This document shows, piece by piece, positions 1,268-22,059 of a stretch of DNA of 32,000 bases. Source of the DNA: Mycolicibacterium smegmatis (GTDB lineage: Bacteria; Actinomycetota; Actinomycetes; Mycobacteriales; Mycobacteriaceae). The stretch lies in the NCBI RefSeq assembly GCF_001457595.1, contig NZ_LN831039.1, forward strand, positions 90,001-122,000. The letters run 5' to 3'. The notes below the pieces were generated by a model. The model was given only the letters and a program-made list of their open reading frames with translations. It was not told the origin of the DNA and did no database searches. Numbering within the stretch: the first letter of the stretch is position 1; every line of letters begins with the position of its first letter. The translations under genes and the position numbers were made by a program.

Positions 1268-2368
1268 GTGCCGATGAATCTGCCGCCCCCTTCGGAACCG
1301 TACGGTCAGCGGCCGCCCACAGGCCCGCCACATTGGGGCACGCAACCGCAATGGGCCAGCGGGCCGCCACCGCCACCGAAAGGAGGCGGAAAGGCCAAAT
1401 GGATTCTGGGCGGTCTGTCCGTCGCCTTGGCGATCGCGCTCGCTGTCGTCATCACTGTGCTCGTCGTCCGTCCCGACGGTGAAAGCCGCAGCGCCGATGG
1501 TGGTTCGGGCATCACTGCTTCCGAGTTCGCCAGCGCCAATGACACGGGGCCGGTCAGCATCATCACCGAAGATCCGACGTGCGACGCGTGGAACACGGTC
1601 GTCGGCCAGTACTCAGAGGCAGCCACCGGCGTAAATTGGGAAGGTCGCGAGGCCGAGACTCCGGCGAGTTCGTGGACGCCAGAGCAGCGCAGGATGTACC
1701 AGGCAGTGGGAATGGCCATGACGCGTGCGACGGAGCAGGTGACGAAGCTTGCGATGCAGACACCGCACAGGGTCATGCGCGAACTCTATGAACAATTTGT
1801 TGCGTACACGGTTGCGTTTGTAGAGCGCATACCCGCCTATGTCGCAGAGGACAACAACCTTGCACTGGCATCAAACGCTGCCGGCAGTAGCGTCTCGAAT
1901 ATCTGCGGAGCCATCACTTTCCGCTCAGCACAAGCGTTAGCGATTTTGGTACCCAATTCTTCCTCCCCTTCAGCGCAGACCGGCCTGAAGACGTCGACAT
2001 CGAAACCTTTTATGTCGCAACCAAACTCGATTTGCCAGGCCTGGGCTTCAGAGGTTGAAGTGTTTTCTGAGGGCACTACCGAATGGCGGAAGATCGATAA
2101 GAATATTCCCGCTAGTGGGTGGACACCCGAACAGAGGGCCGTACATGACGAGGTAGCGCCGCTGATGTCTGCGAATGCTGACACAATGGAGGAACTGGGG
2201 CGAAAGAGTGGTGATCCGCTGCTTGAGGATTTCGCCACGCTAGCAACTCAATACAGGCGCGCATTTGTTCTTTCCCTGCCTCGCTACAGTAGTGCCGATA
2301 GCTACCTGGCGCTGGCAGCAACAAATTTGGTCAGGTTGATAAGCTCAGCATGCAAGGCTGCGTCGTGA
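1268..2368 (+). CDS. Family-A paralog A1: Pro-rich N-terminus, single TM helix, two tandem Cys-bracketed ~107-aa modules (uncharacterised)
   Basis: 366-aa ORF (GTG 1268; ATG 1274 lies 8 nt after GAAGG). Pro-rich head PPPSEPYGQRPPTGPPHWG..PPPPPKGG and TM helix KWILGGLSVALAIALAVVITVLVV. Module 1 spans C105..C213 and module 2 spans C256..C362. Both modules contain a PAS.WTPEQR motif and a VMRELYEQF / LLEDFATLATQY helix. Clear paralogy to the ORFs at 6086 and 20908 and to the fragments at 2544/4336 and 14043. Confidence 0.8.
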   Translation: MPMNLPPPSEPYGQRPPTGPPHWGTQPQWASGPPPPPKGGGKAKWILGGLSVALAIALAVVITVLVVRPDGESRSADGGSGITASEFASANDTGPVSIITEDPTCDAWNTVVGQYSEAATGVNWEGREAETPASSWTPEQRRMYQAVGMAMTRATEQVTKLAMQTPHRVMRELYEQFVAYTVAFVERIPAYVAEDNNLALASNAAGSSVSNICGAITFRSAQALAILVPNSSSPSAQTGLKTSTSKPFMSQPNSICQAWASEVEVFSEGTTEWRKIDKNIPASGWTPEQRAVHDEVAPLMSANADTMEELGRKSGDPLLEDFATLATQYRRAFVLSLPRYSSADSYLALAATNLVRLISSACKAAS

Positions 2369-2543
2369 CGACTAAAAAGGCTATCCCGACTGCTCCGAAG
2401 CCTCGCGAGTTTATTCGCAATGGGCACGCGTACGGATCGATCTCTGCAGGGGAATTTGCCGTCGAACCAGGAGCCCCATTAACGCCCCATCCGAGTCCGG
2501 TTGGGACAAGAAGAGAAGACGGGTATGCGCCCGAAGGGTTGAG

Positions 2544-2877
2544 ATGTGGAGGCTGTTAATGACCTTTTTTCCCTCCTCACGTGATTCGGCCCAACCCCCG
2601 TACGGCTCTCAGCCCTCGCAGCGTGGACCTGAAGGGCCGGGGTACACAGGTGCCTGGCAGCCTCCGTCACCGCGACGAGGCGGAGGGCTGAAGTGGATTT
2701 TGGCGGCCATCGTGTTGGTCGTTGTGATCGGGGTAACGGCCGCAGTGACATGGGCGGTATCTGAGAGAGGAAGCCACCGTGATCAGACGCATTCAAATGT
2801 CTCCCCGGACAAAACAGCGTCGGTACTGAATTCCGATATGGCGAGTGCAAACGACACCGCGCCAGTGGCGGTAATCG
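2544..2877 (+). pseudogene. Family-A paralog A2, N-terminal fragment truncated by the ISL3 element
   Basis: Family N-terminus (..SAQPPYGSQPSQRGPEGPGY.., GGGLKWILAAIVLVVVIGVTAAVT, ..MASANDTAPVAVI) reads straight into the IS left inverted repeat at 2878. The tail of the 129-aa track ORF is IS-derived. ATG 2559 (MTFFPSS..) fits the paralog N-termini better than ATG 2544. Confidence 0.8.
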
Positions 2878-4335
2878 GGCTCTTCGCACTTGATAGGGGT
2901 CTGGTGTTGTCCGACGTTGTGTCGTGTCGGTGATTGATTAGGGGTCCGCGCCCCTGTGAGCTGGGTGTTCTTCAGGCATCCAGGACAAGGAACGCGGACC
3001 ATGGTTGACGGTAGTTCACTGCTGCTCGATCTCGACGGTGTGGTCGTCGAATCGGTGCAGCGCCTCGAGGACGGCACCCGGTTGGTGCAGGTGCTCACCG
3101 CCCCCCAGTGGGTCGGGATCTGCCCCGAATGCGGGGAACGCTCCACCAGGTCGAAAGGCTGGGTACAGACCGGACCCCGCGACGTTGTGGTGGGTTCGGA
3201 CCGCCCGATACTGCGCTGGCGTAAGCGAAAGTGGTTGTGCCCCAGCACGGTCTGTACGCGCAAGGTGTTCACCGAGTCGGTGCCCGGAATCCCGGCGCGG
3301 GCGCGGGTAACACCGCGGGCCAAGGCGACGATGGCCACTGCGGTGCTCGACGAGGACCGTTCGGTGGCCGCGGTGGCCGGGCAGTACCGCTGCGGCTGGC
3401 ACACCGTGCACGACGAAGTCATCGCCACCGCCGAGGACGCCCTGGCCGGCGAGCTGGCGCCGGTGGCGGTGCTCGGCATCGACGAGACCCGACGCGGTAA
3501 GGCCAAATGGGAACACAACCCGGTACTCGGGCGGCGGGTATGGGTGGATCGCTGGGACACCGGACTGGTCGACATCACCGGCGATCAAGGCCTCCTTGGC
3601 CAGGTCAATGGCCGCACCTCGGCGGCAGTGATCGACTGGCTCGCTGGCCAGGACCCTGACTGGCGGGCCGCAATCACCCACGTAGCCATCGATTTGTCCC
3701 CGGCCTATGCCCGGGTGGCTCGCGAAGCACTGCCGCACGCGATCCTGATCGCCGACCGGTTCCACCTGGTCAAGAAAGCCAACGACATGGTTGATGCGGT
3801 GCGCCGCCGGGTCACCTGGACCCAACGGGGCCGGCGCGGCCGCAAGGCCGATGTCGAGTGGATCAACCGCCGCCGCCTGCTGCGCGGCTCCGAGCGGCTC
3901 ACCGCAGACCAACGCGCCACGTTGTTCGCCAAGCTGCTCTCCGCCGACCCCAACCAGGACATCGCCGCGGCCTGGATCGCCAAAGAACTGCTGCGCGACC
4001 TGCTTTCCTGCGCCGACCGCGGCGGGTTGCGCTACGAGATCACGACCGCCCTGGACCGGTTCTACCGTTTCTGCGCGGCCTGCACAGTGCCCGAAGTGAT
4101 CCGACTGGCCCGCACCATCGAGACCTGGCAGGCCCCCATCATCGCCGCCCTGCAGACCGGCCTGTCCAACGCCCGCACCGAAGGCTACAACCGCATCGTC
4201 AAACACGTCGGGCGCATCGCCTTCGGCTTCCGCAATCCTGAGAACCAACGCCGCCGAGTACGGTGGGCCTGCACTCGCCGATCACGACGAGTCACACCCA
4301 GCCGGCACCAACGCCACTGCTAACTGCGAAGAGCC
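2878..4335 (+). mobile_element. ISL3-family insertion sequence (1,458 bp, single transposase ORF)
   Basis: Terminal inverted repeats GGCTCTTCGCACTTGATAGGGG (from 2878) and GGCTCTTCGCAGTTAGCAGTGG (reverse complement ending at 4335). They enclose one ISL3-type transposase gene. The 8-bp flanks GGTAATCG (2870-2877) and GCTAAACC (4336-4343) differ, so there is no target-site duplication. Confidence 0.85.
2956..4323 (+). CDS. ISL3-family DDE transposase
   Basis: 455-aa ORF (GTG 2956; ATG 3001 MVDGSS.. is also possible). N-terminal Cys cluster (CPECGERS..., WLCPSTVC) resembles the ISL3 zinc-finger region. The C-terminal SNARTEGYNRIVKHVGRIAFGFRN motif is typical of ISL3 transposases. Same layout as the 440-aa ORF at 12610-13932. 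Confidence 0.9.
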   Translation: MSWVFFRHPGQGTRTMVDGSSLLLDLDGVVVESVQRLEDGTRLVQVLTAPQWVGICPECGERSTRSKGWVQTGPRDVVVGSDRPILRWRKRKWLCPSTVCTRKVFTESVPGIPARARVTPRAKATMATAVLDEDRSVAAVAGQYRCGWHTVHDEVIATAEDALAGELAPVAVLGIDETRRGKAKWEHNPVLGRRVWVDRWDTGLVDITGDQGLLGQVNGRTSAAVIDWLAGQDPDWRAAITHVAIDLSPAYARVAREALPHAILIADRFHLVKKANDMVDAVRRRVTWTQRGRRGRKADVEWINRRRLLRGSERLTADQRATLFAKLLSADPNQDIAAAWIAKELLRDLLSCADRGGLRYEITTALDRFYRFCAACTVPEVIRLARTIETWQAPIIAALQTGLSNARTEGYNRIVKHVGRIAFGFRNPENQRRRVRWACTRRSRRVTPSRHQRHC

Positions 4336-4719
4336 GCTAAACCCGGACTATCGGAACTCGCGTTGGGTCGCCCCAAGTCGACCTGTCAAGATTGGATTGC
4401 GTTGTCGGATCGATATGATGCTGACACACAGGCATGAGTGACTTCCGATCTCAAAATCCCTGCCTCCGAGTGGAGTCCTGAACAAAGAGCTTTGAACGAA
4501 GCGATCGGTCCGGTGATGGCAGAGAACACAGACAAAATGGAGCAATTGGGCAGACAGAGCGGCAATCCTGTTCTCGAGGACATTACAGTATCTGCAGCTC
4601 AATATCGGCGTGCGTTCGTGAAGGCATTACCGGAGTACACCTGGACGGATAACTACCTATCGCGTGTGGCTGTTTATCTCGCGGGTGCAGTAGATTCGGC
4701 GTGTAAGGCTAGTCGGTGA
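4336..4719 (+). pseudogene. Family-A paralog A2, C-terminal fragment (second module) with internal TGA
   Basis: The frame is continuous from the IS right end: AKPGLSELALGRPKSTCQDWIALSDRYDADTQA, then TGA (4435-4437), then VTSDLKIPASEWSPEQRAL..AQYRRAFVKALPEY..DSACKASR. It aligns with module 2 of A1 (ICQAWASEVEVFSEGTTEWRKIDKNIPASGWTPEQRAV). The TGA sits where all paralogs have Trp (TGG). About 130 central residues of the family architecture are missing between the two A2 fragments. Confidence 0.8.
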
Positions 4720-5244
4720 TGATCAGCTCGAAACACCGATGGAGAATAATTTCGGTCGGCACCGCGGTCTAGCCAGTCAGGCGTATGGTAACGATCAACG
4801 GGCCTGCGAAATTATCAATTTCATCGGACCGAGAGGTTGCATAGCCAAAGCAGCTCCTCCAGTTGAGGATCTTCGCGAGTCGGGCGGATCTCACCTTGAG
4901 ATGCAGCCTGAGTTGGTTACCAAGATAGAGCTGGTCGCCTCGGTCCCGTGGCTAGAGACGGACGATGCGGGTTTGTCGGCTCGATGTGTACCGGTCATGT
5001 CTTTCCGGCCGGAGGCGAGCCGGTGGAGCCGTGACCTGTTCTTCGCCGACATCGTTCGCACATGAGACTCGCACCGTCTGAGGTTGGCCCAGTGGTTTCC
5101 TGTCCACGCCGCCCGACTGCGGCGAATTGCCGCGCATGCGACAGGCAAGTGGCCGTTAAGCTGACTATGGATTACGCCGCGAACGCGGCGGAGGGACTAC
5201 TGGTGGGTGCGGTGCCGTGTATTTGTGCGGAGGGGGAATGACTA

Positions 5245-6042
5245 GTGGGATATCCCGAGTTCCGGGTCATTGAGGAAGCTCTCGATTGGGACCCTGCGGT
5301 GGTGGCGGTACCGCCCGTTCCTGACAACGCTGTCTATGTTCCGGGCGTCGACCCGGTGGGCTTACTTGTGAACGCCGTGATGCCGGGTATTGCGGCCGAT
5401 GTGAATCAGCAAGTTGCGAACACACGTGCGCGCGAGGAACGGTTTGCCAACAACTTGCGGTCCGCGCGAACTGCATATCATCGCACGGATAGTGCCGGTC
5501 AGGCGCAGATCGACAGCGCGGCAAGTACGATCGACCCAGCCGACGCCTTCGGAGCCGGCGTTCCCGTGCAGCCGACGTCGGCGGCCGCGCCTACCGGCGA
5601 TGCGAGCTTCAGCCAACTCACCCAGCTGATGGGCGCGGCGATGCAGGGGGTACAACAAGCAGTGCAAGTGCCGACGCAGGCTGTGGGCACGGGAGCGCAG
5701 ATGGTGCAACCCGTCATGCAGGGCGTCCAAGGAATTGTCCAGCAAAGCACGCCAGCCTCCGGGAAGTCGCAGGACGGCATGGACGGCGAGGGGGACGGAC
5801 CCGGTCATTCACGTGGCGTCGGCCATGAGGATAGATCACAGTCGTTGGCAGGTGAACGCAGTGACAACGGCACTAGGAATGATGTGCCCGAGGATGCAAG
5901 AAAGCCGGACCGGGAGTCGGCCGAGGCAATGGCCCGTGCAGGTGAAAGACCTCTGGCACCGGTCGGTGCACCTCAGGAAGATCCACTGCATCCGGCGAGA
6001 TCCCGATGGACGACACGTAATTCACCGGAGGTGGCGTTGTGA
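5245..6042 (+). CDS. espJ: EspJ-like ESX-1 substrate-type protein, copy 1
   Basis: 265 aa, GTG start. N-terminal helical region carries a YxxxD export-type motif (AYHRTD, nt 5476-5490). The centre is Gln/Ala/Val-rich (QLTQLMGAAMQGVQQAVQVPTQAVG..) and the acidic tail ends EVAL. It resembles my recollection of M. tuberculosis EspJ (..AADVYAKTDQSLG.., Q/A-rich centre). It heads a cassette containing espK and espB homologs; the paralog is at 20049. Confidence 0.6.
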   Translation: MGYPEFRVIEEALDWDPAVVAVPPVPDNAVYVPGVDPVGLLVNAVMPGIAADVNQQVANTRAREERFANNLRSARTAYHRTDSAGQAQIDSAASTIDPADAFGAGVPVQPTSAAAPTGDASFSQLTQLMGAAMQGVQQAVQVPTQAVGTGAQMVQPVMQGVQGIVQQSTPASGKSQDGMDGEGDGPGHSRGVGHEDRSQSLAGERSDNGTRNDVPEDARKPDRESAEAMARAGERPLAPVGAPQEDPLHPARSRWTTRNSPEVAL

Positions 6043-6085
6043 ACCGAAGGAGCCATTGTCGATTCCATGGCGCGGGGGTTCGTAG

Positions 6086-7219
6086 GTGAGCATGCCGCCC
6101 ACGCCTCCTGGATCTGTGCCTCCGCCTCATGGGTTTCCGCCGCCGAGTGGGGGACCAAGCGGATATCCCGGCCCGGCATTCCCATCGCGATCCTGGCAAC
6201 AGCCTCAAGGTCCGAGGCGGGGTAATGGCTGGAAGTGGGCCCTAGGGACCGTGGCCTTGGTCGCTGTAGTTGGAGTAACTGCGGCGGTGACTTCGACCGT
6301 GGTGCATAAGGAAGGTGAAAGTACTTCGCCGTCGGCGGAAGCGCCCACGTCAGCCACAGGCGGTGCGAGCGCAGAGATCGCCAGCTCTGACGACACTCGG
6401 CCGGTCACGGTAATCGCTGAAGATCCATCGTGTGCCGCGGCGACGCCGATTCTGGAGACCCGCGCGGCGATCCAGCGCAACGGTTGGGACAAACGCGACG
6501 CTTCCCTACCCGCTGCCGCATGGTCAGCAGAGGTGCGTGCGCAATATGAAGCAGTGGCGCAGTCGATGCGCCTATCCGCAGATCAATTGGTTCCCGTTGC
6601 AAAGCTCACTCCACATCGCGTCATGCGTGAGCTATACGAGCAAATTATTGCCTACTCGCGGGCGTATGCCGAGAGCGTTTCGGCGTATACGCCCGAAGAC
6701 AACGCCGCGCTGGTAAGTACTAATGCGTCAACCGCGGTATCGCTAATCTGCGTCGCTATCAAGAATGGATCCGCAGCGGCGAGAGGCCCGCTGACTGTTC
6801 AAGGGCCTACACGGTCAGATTTGCAACAAGTGGGCGATGTTTCCAGTCCAGGCCGATTTCTAACCGAGCCGAATCCAGAGTGTTCGACATGGGAAAAGGC
6901 TCTGAATGATTTTGACAATGACACGGTACAGTGGCGTGCGATTTCCGCAGATATCCCAGCAGGGGAATGGACGCCTGAACAGAAATCAATTACCGATGCG
7001 GTGATTCCTGTAATGCGCCGGCTGGCTACTCAGCAGGTACAGTCTGGAGAGCAAAGTGGGAATGCTGTCTGGCGGGACTTTGCTGATTTGTCTGCGCAAT
7101 ACCGCCTTGCATATGCGGAAGCGCTTCCGACGTATGTGGCTTCCGACGACGTTTTATCCGCAGTGTCGCTACGTTTAGGGTCGGTGGTGAGTTCAGCGTG
7201 TCGCCTAGTCGAGAAGTAG
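6086..7219 (+). CDS. Family-A paralog A3 (intact)
   Basis: 377 aa. Head MSMPPTPPGSVPPPHGFPPPSGG.., anchor RRGNGWKWALGTVALVAVVGVTAAVT. Module 1 is C116..C222 and module 2 is C266..C372, so both Cys pairs are spaced exactly 106 residues. Shared motifs are LPAAAWSAEVR / IPAGEWTPEQK and VMRELYEQIIAYSRAYAE / VWRDFADLSAQYRLAYAE. Confidence 0.85.
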   Translation: MSMPPTPPGSVPPPHGFPPPSGGPSGYPGPAFPSRSWQQPQGPRRGNGWKWALGTVALVAVVGVTAAVTSTVVHKEGESTSPSAEAPTSATGGASAEIASSDDTRPVTVIAEDPSCAAATPILETRAAIQRNGWDKRDASLPAAAWSAEVRAQYEAVAQSMRLSADQLVPVAKLTPHRVMRELYEQIIAYSRAYAESVSAYTPEDNAALVSTNASTAVSLICVAIKNGSAAARGPLTVQGPTRSDLQQVGDVSSPGRFLTEPNPECSTWEKALNDFDNDTVQWRAISADIPAGEWTPEQKSITDAVIPVMRRLATQQVQSGEQSGNAVWRDFADLSAQYRLAYAEALPTYVASDDVLSAVSLRLGSVVSSACRLVEK

Positions 7220-7281
7220 GGCCTGTCGTCGGCATTCCGAATGATGGCCGGCCCATGGCCGCCAGATGGGGGCGAGGCTGA

Positions 7282-9003
7282 ATGGCGACTCAACCCGACG
7301 AGAGCTACTACGGCGGGCAGACAGTCACCGGTGCTGGTTGGCCCCACGTTAATGAGGATGTACTCGACGCAACCGCGGATGCATTCGATGACTTGAGGAC
7401 ATTTCTGCGGGATGTAGTTGTTCCCGCTGCGGGTCGGCAGCGTACCAAGTTATCTGATCGCTGGGAAGGCGCAGGCGCGCAAGCCGCGTACGACGAGGCC
7501 AGCGCAATCATCCTCGCACACGAAGCTAGCGAACAAGCTGCTAAAGAAACTAGGGATCAGTTGCGTCTGATGTTCGCGGCGGTCAAGTTTGCGAAGACAG
7601 CTGCGAACAAAACGGCTGAGGAAGTACAGGCTGCCTGCGAGAAGATCATGGGTGAAAAGCCTCCAGCAGAGGGAGAGGACACCCGTAACAGGCGTGCAGC
7701 TGACAAAGTCAAGGAAGGCTATGAGGAGAACGTCCGCTTGGTTTCCGAGTTCTCCAAATGGTTAGCAGAGAAATTGGATGTTCCACCCGATACTCCGGGG
7801 GCGGATGGAAAAGTGCCAACGTCAGAAGCGGAGGGTAAGTCAACTTCACCCGCAGGAGAGGAAGCTGCTGTCGGCGGTAGGGGATCCGCTGGAGGAACAG
7901 GGGTTGTGGCGGATCAGCCACCCCCACCCTCGCTCTTTTCCCCCGTGGCGTACGGAGGTAAGGGTACGGCTCAAGGCACTGGCGTCGTCGCGGATTCGCC
8001 GCCTGCAGACGGTCCCGTGAAATCTGAATCGGGCGGTGGACGGGGTCCAGCCTCTGTGCCTAATGATGTTGACACCCCAGCGACTGTCGGTGGAGACAAT
8101 TCTCCATCGGCGAACAATCCCGAACCTGGCACTCCCAGCATATCGGTGTCCGGAGGCGGCGGTGCACCGTCGCCGAGCGGCGCACCGCAGGGGCCGAGAG
8201 TATCCCCAATGTCGTCGGGCACGGGCAAGGCGGACGCTGTGTCGGCTGAGACAGGTCTAGCCTCCTCCCCGACGCCAGCTACAAGTGGCGGGGCGCCGCA
8301 GAACCCCGCAGAGCAGTTCCAAAAAGGGTTGGCAGATGCGGCGAAGAACGGTGGGTCGCCACAGACGCTGTCGTCTACCCCGTCGCAGCCGCTTGGCGGA
8401 CCGCCAACGACACAGCCACTCGGCACTCCGCCCCCAACGGCAGGCCCTACCGCTCCGCCTACGACCGGAGGCCCGCCAGCACCGGTCGCGCAGGCAGCAG
8501 GTGGACCTGGCGGCGGGGCTGGGCCAGCACCTGTGGCGCCACCCCCAAGCGGAGGTGTCCCAGGTGGGGCGGTCCCGTTGGGACCTCCACCGACTCCTCC
8601 ACTAGCGGCGCCTGTGACGACGCCGTCGCCGGCGGCCGGTCCGCCTGTTGCTCCCACGGGTGCGGCAGCTGGTGCGGCCGGTGGTGGAGGTGCACAGGTC
8701 GCGCCGATTCCGGTGTCGGCGGCACGAGCCGAACGCGACCTTGCCCAACGAGCGGTTCGACGGTCGGGCGTGGATCCGATGGAGACTGCGCGCAGGATTG
8801 CAGCCGCGCTGAACGCCCCTGGGATGACCAACGTCGAGGATTTCAAGTTCTTCTGGGTCACAGGCCTCACGACCGACGGAAAGATCGTCGTCGCCAACAA
8901 CTACGGAATTGCCTACATCCCTCAGCAGGTGCATTTGCCTGAACAGGTGCATATGGCATCTGCCGATGGGCCGAACACAACGGGAAGACCTTGCGCGCAG
9001 TGA
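7282..9003 (+). CDS. espK: EspK-like protein, N-terminal/central part (copy 1); ends prematurely relative to M. tuberculosis EspK
   Basis: 573 aa. N-terminal helical domain with WxG (DRWEGAG), then a long Pro/Ala/Gly/Ser-rich linker. This is followed by [47 protein letters not shown]. That matches the EspK (Rv3879c) region I recall as [47 protein letters not shown]. The ORF terminates as ..[16 protein letters not shown]. Confidence 0.8.
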   Translation: [573 protein letters not shown]

Positions 9004-11324: not shown

Positions 11325-11633
11325 GTGTTAAGGTTCGACGTGCTTGCCGCCACACGTACTTATCTCCTGCTGGGATTCTTCGTTCTGTGTGGAGCATGGA
11401 TTCTGCAGGCGACATCGCACGGCGTTCTCGTCACCATCGCAATCGTCGCGCTGTATGTGATCGGAATCGGGCTGATAGCGGTCGGTTGCTACTACTACCG
11501 GCAGCTTCCTTGGCCGGAACCTGAACGGCAGAGGAAGGTCGGCGCACCGGTCGCCGTTTTCGGCTTTATCGTCATCGCGATCAATCTGGGGGCCTTCGCA
11601 GTCTTCCTTATCTGGGAATACCTGCTGAAATGA
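11325..11633 (+). CDS. Small 3-TM membrane protein (102 aa), copy 1
   Basis: Three hydrophobic helices: YLLLGFFVLCGAWILQA, GVLVTIAIVALYVIGIGLIAVGCYY and VAVFGFIVIAINLGAFAVFLIW. It is conserved (most residues identical) with the ORF at 26147-26455 in the same position after espB. The start is ambiguous (GTG 11325 or GTG 11340). Confidence 0.65.
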   Translation: MLRFDVLAATRTYLLLGFFVLCGAWILQATSHGVLVTIAIVALYVIGIGLIAVGCYYYRQLPWPEPERQRKVGAPVAVFGFIVIAINLGAFAVFLIWEYLLK

Positions 11634-11673
11634 ACGTCCTGAGCGCCTGGCCTATTGAGGGCTGGGCGATCGA

Positions 11674-12602: not shown

Positions 12603-12609
12603 GGATTCT

Positions 12610-13932: not shown

Positions 13933-14042
13933 GTCGAGGTCTTTCAGATGGATGGCGTAGGAACCTCCATCATCGGAAGACCTCGACCCCTATCCCGGCA
14001 CCGACGCGCCGACGACCTCTACACCCTCAACTGCGAAGAGCC

Positions 14043-14980: not shown

Positions 14981-15103
14981 TCACAATGCGACCTCCGGCG
15001 CGGCTTCCGCGATCCTTTGATGTCGTTGCTTCTGTTTAACATGTTGCGAATCCAGCGAAGCATCAACCGGCGCCTGCGCCCCTTCACCGACATCTGCCCC
15101 AGC
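14981..15103 (-). pseudogene. 3' fragment of a third EspJ-like gene (inverted)
   Basis: The reverse strand encodes ..AGADVGEGAQAPVDASLDSQHVKQKQRHQRIAEAAPEVAL* (stop at 14981-14983). This is nearly identical to the C-terminus of the ORF at 20049-20852. The 55-bp spacer to A4 also matches 20853-20907. Homology stops at 15103, next to the IS1380-like element. Confidence 0.8.
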
Positions 15104-16804
15104 CCTGGGTGTCAGGGTGAGTTGAGTCCACTGGTACTTAGCCTGAATCCGTGGAGCGGCCCTCCTTGAGGTGTCCGTGTGTGGTTTCTGCTGCGTTCGG
15201 TGTTGCGGGCATGCGGTAGTTGCTGGTCTGCCCAGCTTTTCCTGTGTGCTCCGGTTGGGCCTGTTCGGCGCGTTGGTCAGGTCGTTGCCGGTAGCGGTGG
15301 GCTGTATCCGATGGTGTTGCGCCACAACGTGAGCCAGTGCTCTGTCCAGGGCCAGTGCTCGGGGAGGTGCAGGATCGGTCGACGCTGGGGTCGGGCCAGA
15401 CGGGCGGGAATGTTGACGATCTTGCGGCGCAGCGTCGCGCCGCGGGCAACCACGTGGGCACCTCCTGCGAGCACGCCGGCGGCGCGCAGCAGGTTGTGCG
15501 CGATCGCCGCGCACAACACCCACGCACTGTTGGCACCGAACTGTCCTGAGGGCATGTGGGCCAGGGGTCCGTCGATCAGATCGGCGAAGACGGTTTCGAT
15601 GATCGCGTGCTGGCGGTGGGTGATGTCAGCCTCGGCGGTCGGCAAGTCTGTGTTGGTGAAGAACGGGTGATACCGCCACACCGGGAACAGCGCGTCCCGA
15701 AATCTCGCGTCTTTGACTCGCCGCACCACCAACCGCGCGGTGAACCGATCTTTGGTAGAGGCGAAGGCGGTGTAGCTGACCTCGGCGACCTCGGCATCAG
15801 AAATCCAGTCACCGGTGTCGGGATCACGCACTGCACCGGGATAGTTGACCGGCTCCCAGGCCTGCTCGTCGATCGAACTGATGGCCCGATCAACCGCGGT
15901 ATTGCGGGTCATCACCACCGAGAAGTGCGCATTGTGGGCTCGGCAGGCGCCCACCACCGACCGGGTGCCGTAGGACGAATCGCCACGCACCAGCAGTTGC
16001 CCGCGCACGCCGGCGGCGCGGGCGGTGGCGATGGCTTGGGCGACCATGCGGCCCGCACCCTTCCCGGAACTGGTCTTACCGGCGCGCAGCCGCATCCCGG
16101 CGATCACCGGCGCCGCTCCGGGGGTGCTGATCGTCGTCGCCAACGGGGAGAGCCCTTTACGCAGAACCTGCTTACCAGCGATCTTGGTATGCCCGTAGGA
16201 GGCACCCTGTTTGGCGTGGCCATAGACCGGGCGCAGCAGTGAGTCGATGTCGATGAACGCCCCCGTGTCGGATCCGGGCAGCAGGTCCACCCGCGCACAG
16301 AGTGCGGCCAGATGATGACGCAGGACCGACTCCAACTGCCGGGCGTGTCCGAAGGTGAACTCCCGCAACAGTGTTCCGATCGTCGATGGTGCATAGACCC
16401 CATCGAAGAGCGTCTTCATCCCGCCGCCACGCACGAGGTCGAGGTCATCAATGCTGTCGGCGCCGGCGCACATTCCGGCGACCACGGTGAGCAGCTTCGG
16501 CGACGGGTTGGCCGACCCGGACTTGATCCGTGGTTCGCTGATACGAACCTTGTCGGCCAGCAACTGTGACAGCCCGGTCTGGGTGGCCAGCGTCATTACC
16601 GGCACCAGACCGGCGCACGACACGAGATGGGCATCATCGAAGACCGCCGACGACGCAGCGAACCTATGGGACACTTTCACCGGAAGTGCCTTTCGAAGTT
16701 GTGCCGATAAGTGCCTAGAGAACACTCATCATCACAGCTCAGAAGGCACTTTCCTCGTCACGACACCCTGCGACCAGCCAATTCATCGGTGGATCGAGGC
16801 TTAG
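15104..16804 (-). mobile_element. IS1380-family-like insertion sequence (ends approximate, about 1.67 kb)
   Basis: It has a single long DDE transposase ORF. Two alternative imperfect terminal repeat pairings (15104.. with ..16773, or 15137.. with ..16804) each match about 12 of 17-18 positions, so the ends are not resolved. It is bounded on the left by loss of espJ homology at 15103 and on the right by the IS3-family element at 16823. Confidence 0.55.
15277..16725 (-). CDS. IS1380-family-type DDE transposase
   Basis: 482 aa (GTG 16725; an internal GTG near 16680 is possible). The N-terminus ..FDDAHLVSCAGLVPVMTLATQTGL resembles that family. The C-terminal HRQHAIIETVFADLIDGPLAHMPSGQFGANSAWVLCAAIAHNLLRAAG motif is characteristic of IS1380/IS4-like transposases. 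The family call is from memory, not a search. Confidence 0.7.
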   Translation of the reverse strand: MFSRHLSAQLRKALPVKVSHRFAASSAVFDDAHLVSCAGLVPVMTLATQTGLSQLLADKVRISEPRIKSGSANPSPKLLTVVAGMCAGADSIDDLDLVRGGGMKTLFDGVYAPSTIGTLLREFTFGHARQLESVLRHHLAALCARVDLLPGSDTGAFIDIDSLLRPVYGHAKQGASYGHTKIAGKQVLRKGLSPLATTISTPGAAPVIAGMRLRAGKTSSGKGAGRMVAQAIATARAAGVRGQLLVRGDSSYGTRSVVGACRAHNAHFSVVMTRNTAVDRAISSIDEQAWEPVNYPGAVRDPDTGDWISDAEVAEVSYTAFASTKDRFTARLVVRRVKDARFRDALFPVWRYHPFFTNTDLPTAEADITHRQHAIIETVFADLIDGPLAHMPSGQFGANSAWVLCAAIAHNLLRAAGVLAGGAHVVARGATLRRKIVNIPARLARPQRRPILHLPEHWPWTEHWLTLWRNTIGYSPPLPATT

Positions 16805-16855
16805 CAACTTGGCAACTTGGCTTGATCTCGGGGCGAGAACGGAATCACCTGAACC

Positions 16856-17284
16856 ATGACGACGACGATGGCTGCTGTGCGCGAGACTGGAGCGGTGGCA
16901 CCTTCACCGCGATCTGATGGCCCGCGCCGGCGGCGCTCGATTTCTCCGGCGCAGAAGCTGGCCCACCTGGATGCCTATGAGCAGGCCTGTACGACCAACG
17001 ATGGTGGGGCGTACCTGCGCGGTGAGGGGTTGTATTCCTCGCAGATCGCCGAGTGGCGCAAACAACGCGATGCTGGGGTGTTGGAAGGCAAGGCACCTGG
17101 GGAGAAGGTCGGTAAACTCACCCGCGAGCAGGCCGAGATCGCCCGCCTGAAAAAGGAACTCGCCCAGGCCAATAATCGGCTGGCGACCACCGAGGCTGCC
17201 CTGGGGATCATGGGAAAAGCACACGCGCTCTTGGAGTCTCTCTCCGAGAGCGCGGACACCGACACGCCGCCGACCAAGCGCTGA
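16856..17284 (+). CDS. IS3-family OrfA (HTH / leucine-zipper type)
   Basis: 142 aa. ..ISPAQKLAHLDAYEQACTTNDGGAYLRGEGLYSSQIAEWRKQRDAG.. is HTH-like. It is followed by the coiled-coil REQAEIARLKKELAQANNRLATTEAALGIMGKAHALLE, typical of IS3 OrfA. The stop TGA overlaps the orfB ATG (TGATG at 17282-17286). Confidence 0.8.
   Translation: MTTTMAAVRETGAVAPSPRSDGPRRRRSISPAQKLAHLDAYEQACTTNDGGAYLRGEGLYSSQIAEWRKQRDAGVLEGKAPGEKVGKLTREQAEIARLKKELAQANNRLATTEAALGIMGKAHALLESLSESADTDTPPTKR
17212..17218 (+). promoter_or_regulatory. Candidate -1 ribosomal frameshift heptamer G_GGA_AAA in IS3 orfA
   Basis: In the orfA frame the codons read atg gga aaa gca, so nt 17212-17218 fit the X_XXY_YYZ slippery pattern. 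The orfB (-1) frame is open from 17176, so a slip here would give an OrfAB fusion. No downstream structure was assessed. Confidence 0.3.
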
Positions 17285-17939
17285 TGGATGCCTACAACGA
17301 TCTGCGGGATATCCAGATTCCGACCCGCAAGGCCGCGGAGGTGACCGGCATGCACCGCTCGACGGCCACTCGACGCGCCAAACCCGCGCCGGCGCCTGCC
17401 GATCGGGCACCACGACCGGTCCCGGTCAACAAGCTCACCGAGTCCGAATGCGCCCGGGTGGTTGAGGTGCTCAACAGTGCCCGGTTCGTCGATGCCGCGC
17501 CGATGCAGGTGTGGGCCACGTTGCTCGATGAAGGCAGCTACCTGTGTTCGGTGTCGACGATGTACCGCGTCCTCAATGCCAACAAGCTGGTCAAGGAGCG
17601 CCGTCGGCTGGCCCGGCACCGCAAAGCGGTCTGCCCGGAACTGGTGGCCACCGCGCCGCGGCAGGTGTATTCGTGGGACATCACCAAACTGGCCGGCCCG
17701 GTCAAAGGGGTCTACTACGACGCCTACGTGATGATCGACATTTACTCGCGTTACATCGTCGGGGTCCATGTGCACGCCCGCGAATGCGGCCAGCTGGCCA
17801 AGGAGATGATGGAACAGATCTTCGGCACCTACGGCATCCCACACGTCGTGCACGCTGATCGGGGCACCTCGATGACCAGCAACACCGTCGCCGGACTGCT
17901 CTCGGATCTGGGCGTCATCCGCTCGCATTCGCGGCCCAA
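17284..17939 (+). pseudogene. IS3-family OrfB (rve integrase-type transposase), 5' part, interrupted by IS256-family element
   Basis: ..QVYSWDITKLAGPVKGVYYDAYVMIDIYSRYIVGVHVH..YGIPHVVHADRGTSMTSN..IRSHSRPK is a DDE/rve core. The reading frame then enters the IS256-family inverted repeat at 17940. The tail of the 238-aa track ORF is IS-derived. Confidence 0.85.
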
Positions 17940-19427
17940 GAGGAATTGTCAATACCTGTGGATCGGGGTGTTTCAGGCGACCTCCGTTCCGGCGTGCTGA
18001 CCGCCGTCTGAGGGCGATGTTGGCGGGGTGATGTCGGTGGGTCGTTCGAGCAGTCTGCCTTTATGGAAGACCGCGCCGGCGCGGACCAGGGCGACCAGGT
18101 GTGGGGCGTTGACGGCACGCCAGCGGGCCGCGGCGGCGTCGATGAGCTTGTAGGCCATCGCTAGTCCGGCCGCTCGTGATCCGGGCCCCTTGGTGACCTT
18201 GGTCCTCAAACGCACTGTGGCAAAGGTGGATTCGATCGGATTCGTCGTTCGCAGATGAATCCAATGTTCGGCCGGATACTTGTAGAATTCCAGCAGCACA
18301 TCGAGGTCGTCGGTGATCTTAGCGACCGCCTTGGGATACTTCGCGCCGAAGTCGGCCTCGAAGGCCTTGACCGCGATCTGGGCCTTGTCGATATCCTCGG
18401 CGTTGTAGATCTCCTTGATCGCCGCCAGCGCCGACGGGTGCGCTGATTTCGGCAGTGCAGCAAGAACATTGGCCTGCTTATGAAACCAGCACCGCTGCTC
18501 TTTGGTGGCCGGGAAAACCTCGCGGACTGCTTTCCAGAACCCGAGCGCGCCATCGCCGATCGCGAGTACGGGGGCGGTCATGCCGCGGCGCTTGCAGTCG
18601 CGCAACAGATCGGCCCACGACTCGGCCGACTCGCGGTAGCCGTCGGTGATCGCCACGAGCTCCTTGCGGCCATCAGCACGCACGCCCAGCATCACCAGCA
18701 GACAGAGCTTTTCCTGGTCCAGCCGCACCTTGAGGTGAATGCCGTCGACCCACAGATACACGTAATCAGTGGCCGAGAGGTCGCGGGCCCCAAACGCGCG
18801 GGCCTCGTCTTGCCACTGCGCCGTGAGCCGGGTGATCGTGCTGGCCGACAGCCCAGCGCCGGAGCCGAGGAACTGCTCGAGGGCAGGGGTGAAATCGTTG
18901 CTCGACAGGCCGTGCAGGTACAGCAGCGGCAGTACCTCGCTCATCTGCGGCGACTTGCGCGCCCAGGCCGGCAGGATCGCCGAGGAGAACCGCTTGCGTT
19001 CACCGGTGTCGGGGTCGACACGGCGGTCGTTGACCCGCGGCGCTTTCACCTGCACCGCGCCGGCGGCGGTCAGCACCTCCCGGGGCTGGTGATAGCCGTT
19101 TCGCACCACCAACCGGTGACCGTTCTCGTCGAGTTGATCGGCGAACTGCGCCACGTAGGCGGCGACCTCGGCCTGCAACGCCGCGGCCAGCATCTGCCGG
19201 GCCCCGTCGCGGACGATCTCATCCAACAACGACCGACCAGCACCGCTGGCCTTGTCGTTGGCGTCCTCGGTGTCGTGAACTACGGTGAGCATGGGCGTAC
19301 CTTCCCAACCAGCGCGCCAACGCCGGTCTTGATCGAATACCTGATTCCGTGAAGATCATCCCCGGGAAGGTGCGCCCATCTTCACGCCCCCACACCGAGG
19401 CTCATCCACAGGTATTGATCATTGCTC
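17940..19427 (-). mobile_element. IS256-family element (IS6120-like, 1,488 bp) nested in IS3 orfB
   Basis: Inverted repeats GAGGAATTGTCAATACCTGTGGAT (17940..) and GAGCAATGATCAATACCTGTGGAT (reverse complement of ..19427). There is a perfect 9-bp target-site duplication GCGGCCCAA (17931-17939 and 19428-19436). Removing the element and one duplicate restores ..HSRPKVSNDNPYSESWF... Confidence 0.9.
17973..19292 (-). CDS. IS256-family (mutator-type) transposase
   Basis: 439 aa, ATG start. LLDEIVRDGARQMLAAALQAEVAAYV.., ..YVYLWVDGIHLKVR.., ..LAIGDGALGFWKAVREVFP..QRCWFHKQANVL.., ..HLRTTNPIESTFATVRLRTKV are the conserved blocks of IS256-family transposases. Confidence 0.92.
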   Translation of the reverse strand: MLTVVHDTEDANDKASGAGRSLLDEIVRDGARQMLAAALQAEVAAYVAQFADQLDENGHRLVVRNGYHQPREVLTAAGAVQVKAPRVNDRRVDPDTGERKRFSSAILPAWARKSPQMSEVLPLLYLHGLSSNDFTPALEQFLGSGAGLSASTITRLTAQWQDEARAFGARDLSATDYVYLWVDGIHLKVRLDQEKLCLLVMLGVRADGRKELVAITDGYRESAESWADLLRDCKRRGMTAPVLAIGDGALGFWKAVREVFPATKEQRCWFHKQANVLAALPKSAHPSALAAIKEIYNAEDIDKAQIAVKAFEADFGAKYPKAVAKITDDLDVLLEFYKYPAEHWIHLRTTNPIESTFATVRLRTKVTKGPGSRAAGLAMAYKLIDAAAARWRAVNAPHLVALVRAGAVFHKGRLLERPTDITPPTSPSDGGQHAGTEVA

Positions 19428-19790: not shown

Positions 19791-20048
19791 CACCCACTGG
19801 ACTCAAACACCTTGACAAATTCCGAGGGGCCGTCTTTATCAGGCTGAAGGTGTGCCAGGGATAGTCGTAGAGGCATGACCCTCGCATGGGGTGGGTCCGG
19901 GCGCTGCTGTATCCAACGCCGATGACGTTGCGGAATTTGGCGTGTCCGTACTGCCATACCGACCGTTAAGCTGAGTGTGGCTAACGTTGCGCAGGTGGGT
20001 CGGACTACATCGCGGGTGCGCCACGGGTTCGTGTGAGGGGAAGGGCTA

Positions 20049-20852
20049 GTGGGATATCCCGAGTTCCGGGTCATAGAGGAGGCGATCGGATGGGATCCGG
20101 CCGAAGTGACGGTTCCCCCCTTGCCTGACAAGGCAGTCGCTGCGCCGGGTGGTGATCCGTTGAGCGCTCTAGTGGGCGCGGTGATGCCGAACCTCGCCAA
20201 CGACGTTAATAAGAAGGTTGCCGAAGCTCGGGCGCGAGAGGAAAGTTTCGCCTCGAACCTGAGTTCTGCTCGTACTGCATATCACGGGGCGGACAGCGCT
20301 GGTCAGGATCAAATCAATGCGGCGGCAGACCAGATTGACCCGGCCGATGCCTTTGGTGCCGGCGCTCCGGTGGAAAGTGCAAACGCTCTGTCATCGGGTG
20401 AGGGTGGTTTCAGCCAGCTCACCCAGTTGATGGGTATGGCGATGCAGGTGGGGCAGCAGGCGGCGCAGATGCCCATGGGCGCGGCGGGCACGATCGGACA
20501 GATGTCTCAGCCCCTGATACAAGGTGTCCAAAGCATCGTTCAACAGGCCGCGCAGGCATCGGAGGGCTCACGCCAAGGCGGTCAGGGCGAGGGCACGGGA
20601 GGAAGCTTTGATAGTGGGGTAGGCGCAGTGGCTCCTGAGTTGAAGCCTGAGGGCGGCAATCACGAGGAAAATGCGGCTGCCGACGGTGGCACGAGGCTTG
20701 ATGAGGAAAACGACCTGTCCGAGGATGCCGCTGGGGCAGATGTTGGTGAAGGGACGCCGGCGCCGGTTGATGCTCCGCTGGATTCGCAACATGTTGAACA
20801 GAAGCAACGACATCAAAGGATCGCGGAAGCCGCGCCGGAGGTCGCATTGTGA
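20049..20852 (+). CDS. espJ: EspJ-like protein, copy 2
   Basis: 267 aa. The first 27 nt are identical to copy 1 (gtgggatatcccgagttccgggtcat). It has the YxxxD motif AYHGAD, a Q/A/M-rich centre and an acidic tail ending ..QKQRHQRIAEAAPEVAL. It is clearly paralogous to 5245-6042 but much diverged in its C-terminal half. Confidence 0.6.
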   Translation: MGYPEFRVIEEAIGWDPAEVTVPPLPDKAVAAPGGDPLSALVGAVMPNLANDVNKKVAEARAREESFASNLSSARTAYHGADSAGQDQINAAADQIDPADAFGAGAPVESANALSSGEGGFSQLTQLMGMAMQVGQQAAQMPMGAAGTIGQMSQPLIQGVQSIVQQAAQASEGSRQGGQGEGTGGSFDSGVGAVAPELKPEGGNHEENAAADGGTRLDEENDLSEDAAGADVGEGTPAPVDAPLDSQHVEQKQRHQRIAEAAPEVAL

Positions 20853-20907
20853 GTAACGGTGGAGGTATTGGGTTGCGCCATAAAGGTATTGGTACGGAGG
20901 TTCATCG

Positions 20908-22059
20908 GTGAGCTTTTCTCCTCCTCCTCCTCCTCCTCCTCCTCCTCCCGGTTCCGTGCCGCCTCCGAACGGCTTCCAGCCGCCGCAAGGCGGGCTGAGT
21001 GGACATGGATACCCTGCTGATGCTTGGCAACAACCTCCGAGGTCTCCGAAGCGGGGCAACGGATGGAAGTGGATCTTGGGCGGAGTAGCACTGGTCGTCG
21101 TGATCGGAGTGACGGCAGCTGTGACGTTGTCGATCGCTAACAGGGGCCCTGGGAACAATGGGTCGAGTTCAAGCGCGCCATCGCCTTCGGTTAATGAGAC
21201 AGCTAGCGCAGAAGTCGCCAGCGCCGACGACACCGGACCCGTCTCTGTAATCACCGACGATCCGTCGTGTGCAGCGCAGCAGCCCATTCTCGATACGTAC
21301 GCGAGAGCATCCCAAAATGGTTGGCAGGACAGGGATCCCAATATTCCTCGCGCTAGCTGGACGCCCGAGGTGCGTACGCAGTATGAAGAAGCTGCGCAGG
21401 CGATGAAAAACGCCGCCGACCAGTTAGTGCCAATCGCTAAACTAACGCCGCACCGGGTGATGCGGGAACTATACGAACAATTCATCGCTTATGCGCGTGC
21501 CTATGCTTCGGCTGTACCGAATTACGACCCTATTGACGATAACATGGCCATCGTTGCTAACGCGACAGGCGACGCCATAACCTTTATATGTGCCGCGATC
21601 CAAAATGGTTCCGCGGGGGCCCGCGGTCCTCTAGTCGAGAAGATCCCAAGCCAGTCCTTCATCCAGTCGGATATAGACATCGAGAACCCCAGCCGATTTC
21701 TGCTGGAAACTAATCCAGCCTGTTCCACCTTGGATTCTGCGCTGGCCAGCTTCCAGGCTGATACGTCGGCGTGGCTGGAAACCGATCCAGGGATTCCCGC
21801 GAGCGACTGGTCACCAGAACAAAGGGAACGGAATGAGCAGGTAGCCCCTGTGATGCGGCGGTTCGCAACTCAACTGCAATCGGTTGGCAGACAAAGTGAC
21901 AACGCAGTTTTTCGTGATTTCGCGTATCTTTCAGCGCAGTATCGGAAAGCTTACGTCTCGGCTCTGCCAAGTTATGTGCCAGCGGATCGGTACCTTGCCA
22001 CCGTGTCGCTGCGCCTGGCAGGAGCGTTAAGCGCGGCATGCTCGGCAGCGGGAGCTTGA
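20908..22059 (+). CDS. Family-A paralog A5 (intact)
   Basis: 383 aa, GTG start. MSFS(P)10GSVPPPNGFQPPQGGLSG.., anchor RGNGWKWILGGVALVVVIGVTAAVT. It has two Cys-bracketed modules (..DDPSCAAQQP....TFICAAI; ..NPACSTLD....LSAACSAA) with the IPASDWSPEQR and VMRELYEQFIAY / VFRDFAYLSAQY motifs. Confidence 0.85.
   Translation: MSFSPPPPPPPPPPGSVPPPNGFQPPQGGLSGHGYPADAWQQPPRSPKRGNGWKWILGGVALVVVIGVTAAVTLSIANRGPGNNGSSSSAPSPSVNETASAEVASADDTGPVSVITDDPSCAAQQPILDTYARASQNGWQDRDPNIPRASWTPEVRTQYEEAAQAMKNAADQLVPIAKLTPHRVMRELYEQFIAYARAYASAVPNYDPIDDNMAIVANATGDAITFICAAIQNGSAGARGPLVEKIPSQSFIQSDIDIENPSRFLLETNPACSTLDSALASFQADTSAWLETDPGIPASDWSPEQRERNEQVAPVMRRFATQLQSVGRQSDNAVFRDFAYLSAQYRKAYVSALPSYVPADRYLATVSLRLAGALSAACSAAGA
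20920..20946 (+). repeat. (CCT)9 trinucleotide microsatellite encoding a poly-Pro run at the 5' end of A5
   Basis: Nine perfect CCT units followed by CCC give P10. The A4 paralog has only four Pro codons at the same place (rc of 14905-14925 reads gtg agc ttt cct cct cct cct). Confidence 0.9.

Follow-up and report, generated by a model that had tools for sequence, protein, structure and literature searches.

We analyzed a stretch of 32,000 nucleotides from Mycolicibacterium smegmatis (contig NZ_LN831039.1, positions 90,001 to 122,000 of the forward strand), which we call the window. Six-frame open reading frames (ORFs) and domain scans place it as the eccD1-to-mycP1 interval of the M. smegmatis esx1 locus, and this interval contains three intact genes (A1, A3, and A5) and two remnants (A2 and A4) of one membrane protein family, family A. 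A preliminary description, made from the sequence alone, had reported these five copies and had tentatively linked them to MSMEG_0070, a gene of the mating-identity (mid) region. All five copies lie where it placed them, with A1, A3, and A5 as intact ORFs. The copies, the insertion sequences (ISs) that adjoin the remnants, and the parts of A5, including its transmembrane (TM) helix, are as follows.

1268-2368, + strand: A1, intact, 366 amino acids; mc2155/Nishi-like anchor type; 46% identity over 389 amino acids to mc2155 Msmeg0070
2544-2877, + strand: A2, 5' remnant; head, TM helix, and stem; last residues ..APVAVI
2878-4335, + strand: ISL3-family IS; transposase 2956-4323; 14-nucleotide terminal inverted repeats GGCTCTTCGCACTT
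4336-4719, + strand: A2, 3' remnant; module 2 only; in-frame TGA at 4434-4436
6086-7219, + strand: A3, intact, 377 amino acids, cassette 1; 52% identity to Rabinowitchi Msmeg0070; the database entry starts two codons later
11786-14042, - strand: ISL3-type element; PRiA4_ORF3 passenger gene 11850-12602 (+), transposase 12610-13932; its right end truncates A4
14043-14925, - strand: A4 remnant, inverted; head to start of module 2; cut by the IS
20908-22059, + strand: A5, intact, 383 amino acids, cassette 2; a 100% identical database protein carries PF27060
Parts of A5: head 20908-21063, TM helix 21064-21129, disordered linker 21130-21216, stem 21217-21270, module 1 21265-21603, inter-module linker 21604-21720, module 2 21721-22056

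By pairwise BLASTP, A1 is 37-39% identical to the other copies, and the identities are 56% for A3/A5, 51% for A3/A4, and 65% for A4/A5. A1, A3, and A5 retain 21/21 of the residues that do not vary among 61 family members. Proteins that are identical to A1, or that belong to the 90%-identity clusters of A3 or A5, are present in other M. smegmatis assemblies. Accessions for the strain are CKG82954, CKG83073, and CKG83476.

Relationship to Msmeg0070

To compare family A with MSMEG_0070, we took the corrected sequences of the Msmeg0070 orthologs from Fig. S2 of Clark et al. 2022 (PMC9040860), as machine-read text in which a capital O was taken as Q. BLASTP of A1, A3, and A5 against these orthologs, a check that the preliminary description had proposed, found full-length homology, so its tentative link was correct. 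A1 is 46% identical to mc2155 Msmeg0070 over 389 columns (E 3e-120 in a 10-sequence database), and A5 is about 51-52% identical to MKD8_0070 (E 6e-125, also in a small database). Against the Rabinowitchi and MKD8 orthologs, A3, A4, and A5 align over their full length at 48-54%. Independently of the machine-read text, the MKD8 protein D806_000760 matches A5 at E 4.3e-108 in a search of 5.8 billion proteins; apart from a few character-recognition differences, this protein is the MKD8 row of Fig. S2. In precomputed annotation, the Pfam family PF27060 (PF27060.1) is present on all 120 matches listed, including the entries for A5 (100% identical), A3, and A4. Our own hmmscan of local copies of Pfam and NCBIfam gave no family for A1 or A5 because the scanned Pfam copy did not contain the PF27060 model. 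(We disregarded a match of A1 to Rv0361_Cterm, which was below threshold, with E 0.0096 and 16 bits against a cut-off of 37.) By these alignments, family A is the Msmeg0070 (mid) self-identity family, Pfam PF27060 (Mycobact_ESX1_assoc).

Two types of anchor occur among the Msmeg0070 orthologs, and both are present in the window. LAIALAVV..VLVVRPD is found in mc2155, Jucho, Nishi, and A1, and VVGVTAAVT is found in MKD8, Rabinowitchi, A2 (5' fragment), A3, A4, and A5. The translations agree with what is expected of this family (a proline-rich N-terminus, then one TM helix around residues 55-90, in a protein of ~370-390 amino acids); in the structure model described below, the helix is at 53-74.

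Msmeg0070 has been described as a highly polymorphic, proline-rich protein of 388 amino acids with a single TM segment at 67-89 and without known relatives, and duplications and additional paralogs were mentioned for mid regions (PMC9040860). Transposon mutants, complementation, and allele exchange showed that Msmeg0070 and MKD8_0070 confer self-identity, and cells with identical mid do not conjugate; the genetics of this block between same-allele cells covers the mc2155, Jucho, and MKD8 alleles (PMC9040860). Family A shares with these two proteins its family (by full-length homology), its position between eccD1 and espK/espB, the proline-rich head, the single TM helix, and extreme divergence between strains. 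Relative to the published alleles, the window represents a further strain that has five copies, none of them closer than ~54%.

We put the probability at about 70% that family A consists of paralogous and allelic copies of Msmeg0070, the polymorphic mid gene by which conjugating cells tell self from non-self. By homology, A1, A3, and A5 would themselves act in self-identity and prevent conjugal transfer when both cells have the same allele. An alternative reading as polymorphic toxin or immunity proteins was set aside, as domain scans found no enzymatic or toxin domain in family A proteins or their neighbors.

To our knowledge, no kin-recognition determinant of mycobacteria other than Msmeg0070 has been identified genetically, and our literature search found no mechanistic or structural work on it after 2022. 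The Msmeg0070-type system is already known; the strain in which it is seen here is a new one, and its mid region is unusually expanded and riddled with ISs. Our analysis adds a fold model, a tandem repeat with cysteine pairs, saturation at synonymous sites, recombination breakpoints, a split between linked and orphan copies, and a cassette exchange between species. With three intact alleles that are mutually ~37-56% identical on one chromosome, the strain is a natural experiment.

Predicted fold and the distribution of variation

We modeled A5 with AlphaFold2 (AF2) and an alignment of 61 sequences (predicted template modeling score 0.73). The model has a disordered proline-rich head, a TM helix at 53-74, a disordered Ser/Pro/Gly linker at 75-103, and two bundles of four helices each (H120-135, H153-177, H183-205, and H208-232, then H272-285, H303-329, H333-355, and H358-382), with the near-invariant stem ASADDTGPVSVITEDPSC between the linker and the first bundle. 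The predicted local confidence (pLDDT) is 93-98 in both helical modules and falls to 87 and 78 in 10-residue blocks across the inter-module linker. The head and the single TM helix agree with the preliminary description, as does its claim of two modules: in a profile alignment (hhalign), module 1 matches module 2 with a probability of 99.7%, E 8.5e-27, and 29% identity over 116 columns. The region after the TM helix is predicted to be a tandem repeat of two homologous four-helix bundles.

Four of the 21 columns that are invariant among the 61 family members are cysteines (C121, C228, C272, and C378); each bundle has one where helix 1 starts and another close to where helix 4 ends. These ends meet in an up-down-up-down bundle, so each bundle probably contains one disulfide. 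There are 3-4 basic residues before the TM helix (KRGNGWKW), and the net charge after it is about 0 to +1. From the basic residues, by the positive-inside rule, and from the placement of the cysteines, we infer that the N-terminus is inside and the C-terminus outside, with extracytoplasmic bundles that are each clasped by a disulfide.

We found no solved relative of the module. When the AF2 model was compared to the PDB with Foldseek, nothing scored below E 0.34, and the top matches were generic helical proteins; a profile search of PDB sequences gave nothing below E 0.5. Among the periplasmic four-helix-bundle sensor domains (4HB_MCP), the helical bimodular domain of McpS (PDB 2YFA) resembles family A in having an all-helical domain of two bundles after a TM helix, which in family A is predicted to be extracytoplasmic as well, but the match is not significant (Foldseek E 0.55, TM-score 0.17-0.25), and the long helices of McpS run through both modules, whereas family A has separate tandem bundles, each with its own cysteine pair.

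The preliminary description saw a conserved anchor and a hypervariable ectodomain throughout the family. For A3/A5, the contrast is real but moderate, with identities of 67% in the head, 71% in the TM helix, and 72% in the stem versus 52-58% in the modules. In the closest pair, A4/A5, it is also seen, but there it is the product of a recombination mosaic (see below). A common anchor holds for A2 to A5 but not for A1, whose anchor is of the other type (TM identity of 25-38% to the other copies).

A broader view comes from the mean pairwise identity among 44 ESX-1-linked copies. The stem (0.77) and the TM helix (0.67) are among the most conserved parts, and the turn and helix 3 of module 1 (TPHRVMRELYEQ) reach 0.71. 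The most variable parts are the two linkers (0.33) and helix 1 of module 2 (0.35), and helix 4 is also highly variable in module 1 (0.39) and in module 2 (0.40). Variation in these copies is concentrated on helices 1 and 4 and the linkers, and the stem and module-1 helix 3 are nearly invariant. In three of the four most variable helices (module-1 helix 4, module-2 helix 1, and module-2 helix 4), variability has a period of ~3.3-3.6 residues, which means that one face of the helix varies and the other face is core; in the remaining helices, no clear helical periodicity was found. This would fit a constant face for docking and variable faces for recognition.

If family A is the self-identity determinant, these features suggest how it might work. 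The disulfide-clasped bundles would lie outside the cytoplasmic membrane, with the N-terminus in and the C-terminus out; the conserved stem and the helix-3 face would dock to a constant partner; and the variable helix faces would carry allele-specific recognition, either homotypic or via a co-polymorphic partner. When both mating partners have the same allele, distributive conjugal transfer would be blocked. In place of a vague "polymorphic, proline-rich membrane protein," this is a testable model with a constant stem and helix-3 face, two cysteine-bracketed bundles, and variable helices 1 and 4.

Two known types of system invite comparison. TraA of Myxococcus xanthus also combines a constant scaffold with a variable recognition region, has many allele groups per species, and has proposed homotypic specificity. 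However, TraA is located on the cell surface and its variable domain is PA14-like, and family A is an all-helical tandem bundle with a cytoplasmic-membrane anchor; also, a match of TraA promotes exchange (of outer membrane, in Myxococcus), and a match of family A would prevent it. The surface or entry exclusion of conjugative elements (for example, TraS/TraT of F or Eex-TraG of SXT/R391) has the same phenotype, in that cells with the same determinant are blocked from transfer and there are allele-specific exclusion groups, but family A is chromosomal, ESX-1-linked, and unrelated to type IV secretion.

Cassettes and insertion sequences at the locus

The other features of the window, from left to right, are:

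3-1175, + strand: eccD1 (3' part), left border of the mid region; Pfam EccD, E 1e-35
5245-6042, + strand: Msmeg0069-like gene of cassette 1, 265 amino acids; weak EspC match (PE/EspC-like); positional equivalent of espJ
7282-9446, + strand: EspK homolog of cassette 1 (Msmeg0071-like); two ORFs in different frames, 7282-9003 (573 amino acids) and 8991-9446 (151 amino acids)
9658-11220, + strand: espB copy 1; Pfam EspB_PE and EspB_PPE
14981-15103, - strand: third Msmeg0069-like gene, of which the last ~40 codons are left upstream of A4; 36/40 residues as in the C-terminus of the cassette-2 0069-like protein
15277-19292, - strand: IS cluster; DDE_Tnp_1_4 transposase 15277-16725, rve integrase fragment 17284-18000 (+), Mutator-family transposase 17973-19292
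19825-23803, + strand: block of mid cassette 2 with the 0069-like gene, A5, and the greater part of EspK; identity of 99.6% to an M. goodii esx1 locus, against ~89% for the flanks
20049-20852, + strand: Msmeg0069-like gene of cassette 2, 267 amino acids; Pfam PE match barely over its cut-off (23.0 versus 22 bits)
22117-24275, + strand: EspK homolog of cassette 2; two ORFs as in copy 1, 22117-23832 (571 amino acids) and 23820-24275 (151 amino acids)
24487-26052, + strand: espB copy 2; 88% amino acid identity to copy 1
26819-27553, - strand: EspA/E-like gene
29286-31993, - strand: eccE1 (within ORF 29286-31136) and mycP1 (30677-31993), right border; Pfam EccE and Peptidase_S8

Because A3 and A5 have 0069-like genes on their 5' side and EspK homologs on their 3' side, the repeated unit is 0069, 0070, espK, espB. 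Both occupy the mid position between eccD1 and espK/espB, and each starts 44-56 bp after its 0069-like gene, an operon-like layout that mc2155 also has. A4 has a remnant of this arrangement, and A1 lies directly 3' of eccD1 without a 0069-like partner. The 40-codon remnant of a 0069-like gene upstream of A4 implies that at least three 0069-0070 cassettes were once present, besides A1 and A2. The order of eccD1, 0069, 0070, espK, and espB is usually compact; its expansion to ~25 kb here results from rearrangements associated with ISs and from the second copy of the cassette.

The truncation of A4 by an IS was described correctly: A4 is cut after codon ~294, exactly at the end of the inverted repeat (14032-14042) of the 11786-14042 element. 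A2 had been described as IS-disrupted, and the IS at 2878-4335 does lie between its fragments, but this was not a simple insertion. No target-site duplication surrounds the IS (the 8-bp flanks differ, GGTAATCG versus GCTAAACC), and the two fragments jointly lack the whole of module 1 (~140 amino acids), which rules out a gene that was merely interrupted. The 11786-14042 element has no target-site duplication either, so both ISL3 elements mark rearrangement junctions. They have the same terminal repeat, GGCTCTTCGCA, and the left end of the 11786-14042 element is the end of the duplicated espB segment.

Given this history, it could be that just one copy is functional, and that the others are by-products of IS rearrangement and an imported cassette, silent or redundant and decaying, so that the five-copy array itself has no function. 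We consider this unlikely. It would account for the two of five copies that are already remnants at IS ends without target-site duplications, for an inter-cassette region that is an IS graveyard, for the EspK that is split in both cassettes, and for the compact locus of one M. goodii strain, which has a single intact copy of family A. (In this M. goodii locus, eccD1 is followed by just ~320 bp from the start of an A1-like gene, in a match of window positions 3-1591 to L083 6561-8147 at 89.7%; from this remnant, an A1-type copy 3' of eccD1 appears to be older than the species split.) It does not sit well with the intact A1, A3, and A5 and their full set of invariant residues, with the purifying selection on the A5 lineage (ω 0.09; see below), with the operon-like placement of A3 and A5, or with the recurrence of A1-identical and A3/A5-cluster proteins in other M. 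smegmatis assemblies.

The two cassettes differ sharply along their length. The 0069-like genes are 53% identical in amino acids (68% in DNA), and the N-terminal ~440 amino acids of EspK have no BLASTP similarity to each other, whereas the last 129 amino acids of the first EspK ORF are 100% identical. The 151-amino-acid C-terminal ORFs of EspK are also 100% identical between the cassettes, in which the A3 and A5 ectodomains are only 55% identical. In a self-BLAST of the window, 8311-11779 matches 23140-26573 at 91%. Of the two espB copies, the first 296 residues (PE/PPE-like domains) are identical, and the Gly/Ser/Pro-rich C-terminal half has diverged.

Both EspK ORFs of each cassette match the EspK C-terminal domain (PDB 8AKO_B; E 1.9e-17 for the first ORF and E 6e-42 for the second). 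The first ORFs (573 and 571 amino acids) stop inside the start of this domain, and the 151-amino-acid ORFs supply the rest. Relative to a single 740-codon ORF in M. goodii (L083 11210-13432), espK is split by a deletion of ~64-66 bp, and the sequence around the deletion junction is identical in both cassettes.

Cassette 2 has a close relative in another species. Positions 19825-23803 are 99.6% identical over 3,979 bp to M. goodii L083 8918-12896, a block that contains the 0069-like gene and A5 as well as the part of EspK before the deletion. Outside the block, identity to M. goodii is 89.7% at eccD1 and 88.6% across the 8 kb from the C-terminal part of espK to mycP1. The block suggests that a whole mid cassette was recently exchanged between species. 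On the right, its breakpoint falls together with the deletion by which espK is split.

That the cassette was transferred with precisely its three polymorphic parts (0069, 0070, and the N-terminus of EspK) also bears on a second alternative, which we regard as possible although clearly less probable than the main reading given above. The 0070 ectodomain could be an envelope receptor for an allele-matched, polymorphic ESX-1 substrate that is encoded alongside it and secreted by the partner or by the cell itself. The candidates are the PE/EspC-like 0069 or the WXG-containing N-terminus of EspK/0071. Identity would then be a secreted key that fits a membrane lock, as in IdsD-IdsE of Proteus. The co-divergence of the cassettes is as expected (0069 at 53%, 0070 at 56%, no similarity in the EspK N-terminus, and 129 amino acids of EspK at 100%), although it could be plain linkage to a balanced polymorphism. 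The 0069, 0070, EspK order is widely conserved in other species; the weak PE/EspC-like matches of 0069 and the WEGxG motif in the N-terminus of EspK are typical of substrates of type VII secretion systems (T7SS); and a secreted ligand would not face the problem of the mycomembrane. However, A1 and the orphan copies (below) lack a 0069-like neighbor. Also, a transposon insertion in mc2155 Msmeg0071 left compatibility unchanged, and Msmeg0070 alone complemented (PMC9040860).

Whichever partner is involved, the Ids system of Proteus mirabilis (IdsD, which is delivered by a type VI secretion system, or T6SS, and its membrane partner IdsE) is likewise a polymorphic identity determinant in or next to a secretion locus, with a variable membrane protein beside a candidate secreted partner and with allele matching as self. 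The systems have no relation in sequence or fold, one uses a T6SS and the other a T7SS, and the 0069-0070 interaction is hypothetical; furthermore, an Ids match permits swarms to merge, and a family A match would block DNA transfer.

Selection, recombination, and relatives in other genomes

A dN/dS (ω) profile of the five paralogs, as the preliminary description had suggested, turned out to be uninformative because the proportion of synonymous differences (pS) is 0.68-0.94 in both modules for every pair, which is at or beyond saturation. The saturation itself implies that these are ancient alleles. We instead used the closest cross-species pair and 236 pairs from other genomes whose ectodomains have unsaturated dS, ranked by ectodomain pS. 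Between A5 and an orphan relative from M. goodii that is 83% identical, ω is 0.09 in the ectodomain and 0.2-0.5 in the head, TM helix, and linker. Among the 58 lowest-pS pairs with substitutions, ectodomain ω is 0.03-0.36. Within an allele lineage, strong purifying selection (ω of about 0.1) acts on the ectodomain in the pairs for which dS can be measured. The idea of a diversifying exposed domain is not borne out: there is no sign of ongoing diversifying selection, with ω of 0.03-0.36 wherever it could be measured.

Recombination is visible within the window. From 180 bp upstream of the start codon to residue ~120, the identity of A4 and A5 at third codon positions is 0.85-0.95, and directly after the DDPSC motif it drops to 0.2-0.45. 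In other words, the 5' third of A4 is close to A5 (dS 0.05-0.26), and the remainder is saturated. The A4/A5 pair is a recombination mosaic with its breakpoint at the conserved DDPSC stem, near residue ~120.

In syntenic ESX-1-linked pairs from other species, the flanks are 80-93% identical in nucleotides and the ectodomains are 54-62% identical. The ectodomain identity of linked copies levels off at 0.45-0.55 (median 0.47-0.55), however similar the adjacent EspK C-terminal domains are, and even where these are 90-100% identical. Orphan copies, which lie outside esx1, keep pace with their flanks (for example, flank 89% and gene 95%, or 79% for both). Mean identity is 85% among orphan copies and 50% among ESX-1-linked copies. 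The alleles look like old, internally conserved lineages that are maintained at the ESX-1-linked site while recombination reshuffles them. Such old lineages, rather than current hypermutation, are what rare-allele advantage at a self-recognition locus predicts. Old alleles that are kept and reshuffled still fit an identity determinant, as the preliminary description had suggested. If family A does determine self-identity, its alleles would be old lineages under balancing (rare-allele) selection, not products of rapid point mutation, and they would be moved as ~4-kb cassettes or exchanged by recombination at the conserved stem.

A more speculative extension, which we advance tentatively and think is probably not the case, is that the paralogs form a working archive from which identity alleles are drawn. 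Intact and broken copies, and whole 0069-0070-espK(N) cassettes that come from other strains or species, would donate ectodomain segments to an expressed copy, through recombination at the invariant DDPSC stem or at the conserved 3' end of espK. The young 5' part of A4/A5 on old, unrelated ectodomains would fit, as would the 4-kb cassette that is 99.6% identical across species between flanks that differ by 11%. If so, a lineage could change its mating identity, or carry several, in one step, and bacteria would have their own equivalent of the cassette switching known for mating types and antigens.

To place these copies among their relatives, we ran a profile search against 1.84 billion sequences, which gave 411 representatives of 50%-identity clusters (E <= 0.001). 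In species-representative genomes, there were 311 matching stretches, and we examined the best 80 loci. All of these 80 are from Mycobacterium, Mycolicibacterium, Mycobacteriaceae, or actinomycete metagenome-assembled genomes (MAGs), and slow growers such as M. kyorinense and M. shimoidei are among them. Canonically, the genes are arranged as eccD1, 0069, A, espK, espB, eccE, and mycP1, and the 0069-0070-EspK order is widely kept in other species. Although a five-copy arrangement had been thought undescribed, multiple copies are not unheard of, as arrays of four to five or more copies occur in other species and the family is listed in Pfam. M. fortunisiensis has five adjacent copies and more on the same contig (NZ_VOMB01000004.1), one MAG contig (L027) has four, and M. 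porcinum has two. The M. fortunisiensis arrays (L011 9983-16124, plus L030 on the same contig) are larger than the array in the window.

Several points weigh against family A as a self-identity determinant. No measurable pair has ω above 1. Of the family members in other species, about half lie outside esx1 as orphans and evolve conservatively, so the family fold must also have some non-polymorphic, and possibly housekeeping, role. Direct homotypic contact between cells is questionable, as the anchor is in the cytoplasmic membrane, the linker is ~30 residues, and the mycomembrane lies between. Lastly, the split of espK in both cassettes may alter ESX-1-linked functions in this strain.

Some of these points would also be expected if family A were a conserved accessory component of the envelope or of ESX, whose polymorphism arose by escape from phage, an antagonist, or a host factor, or by relaxed constraint with poor recombinational repair. 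We consider this quite improbable. The orphans are conserved (ectodomain identity of 0.85 within the class), track their flanks, and have ω of ~0.03-0.2; one of them is beside WXG100 and PPE genes; GC content at third codon positions (GC3) is depressed across the family, with a median of 0.63 in genomes of ~65% GC; and the lack of ω above 1 also agrees. But a plateau of ~50% identity between near-identical flanks argues for maintained alleles over relaxed constraint, purifying selection is strong within an allele lineage, and direct genetic evidence links Msmeg0070 and MKD8_0070 to conjugal self-identity (PMC9040860). For experiments on self-identity, the split between polymorphic ESX-1-linked members and conserved orphans indicates which members can serve as controls.

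The conserved orphan subfamily outside esx1 is found in ten of our loci (L048, L054, L064, L069, L070, L072, L076, L077, L079, and L080), in each with the match at ~10001-11000. The orphan in L070 adjoins a WXG100 gene (11465-11839, - strand) and a PPE gene (12148-13419, - strand), between housekeeping genes. The M. goodii orphan that is 83% identical to A5 (L081/L082 10001-10978) is between adh_short and aldehyde dehydrogenase genes, far from ESX genes; its annotated start is too far downstream, and the ORF continues upstream as far as a VSFPPPP start. Closer relatives of A5, from its 90%-identity cluster, are in M. goodii esx1 loci such as L083.

GC3 distinguishes the mid genes of the window (at 1268-8310, 14043-14925, and 20049-23139) from the core genes. 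It is 0.51-0.64 in family A, 0.62-0.64 in the 0069-like genes, and 0.55-0.56 in the N-terminus of EspK, far below the 0.88-0.89 of eccD1, eccE, and mycP1. The family-wide median of 0.63, in loci of ~65% GC, is similarly low. One idea is that GC-biased gene conversion is reduced where alleles are too diverged to recombine.

Finally, some family members are considerably longer, with 944 or 655-672 amino acids. In these proteins, the family A region is C-terminal and follows 270-600 extra residues, which may be fusions to an upstream gene or artefacts of gene calling.

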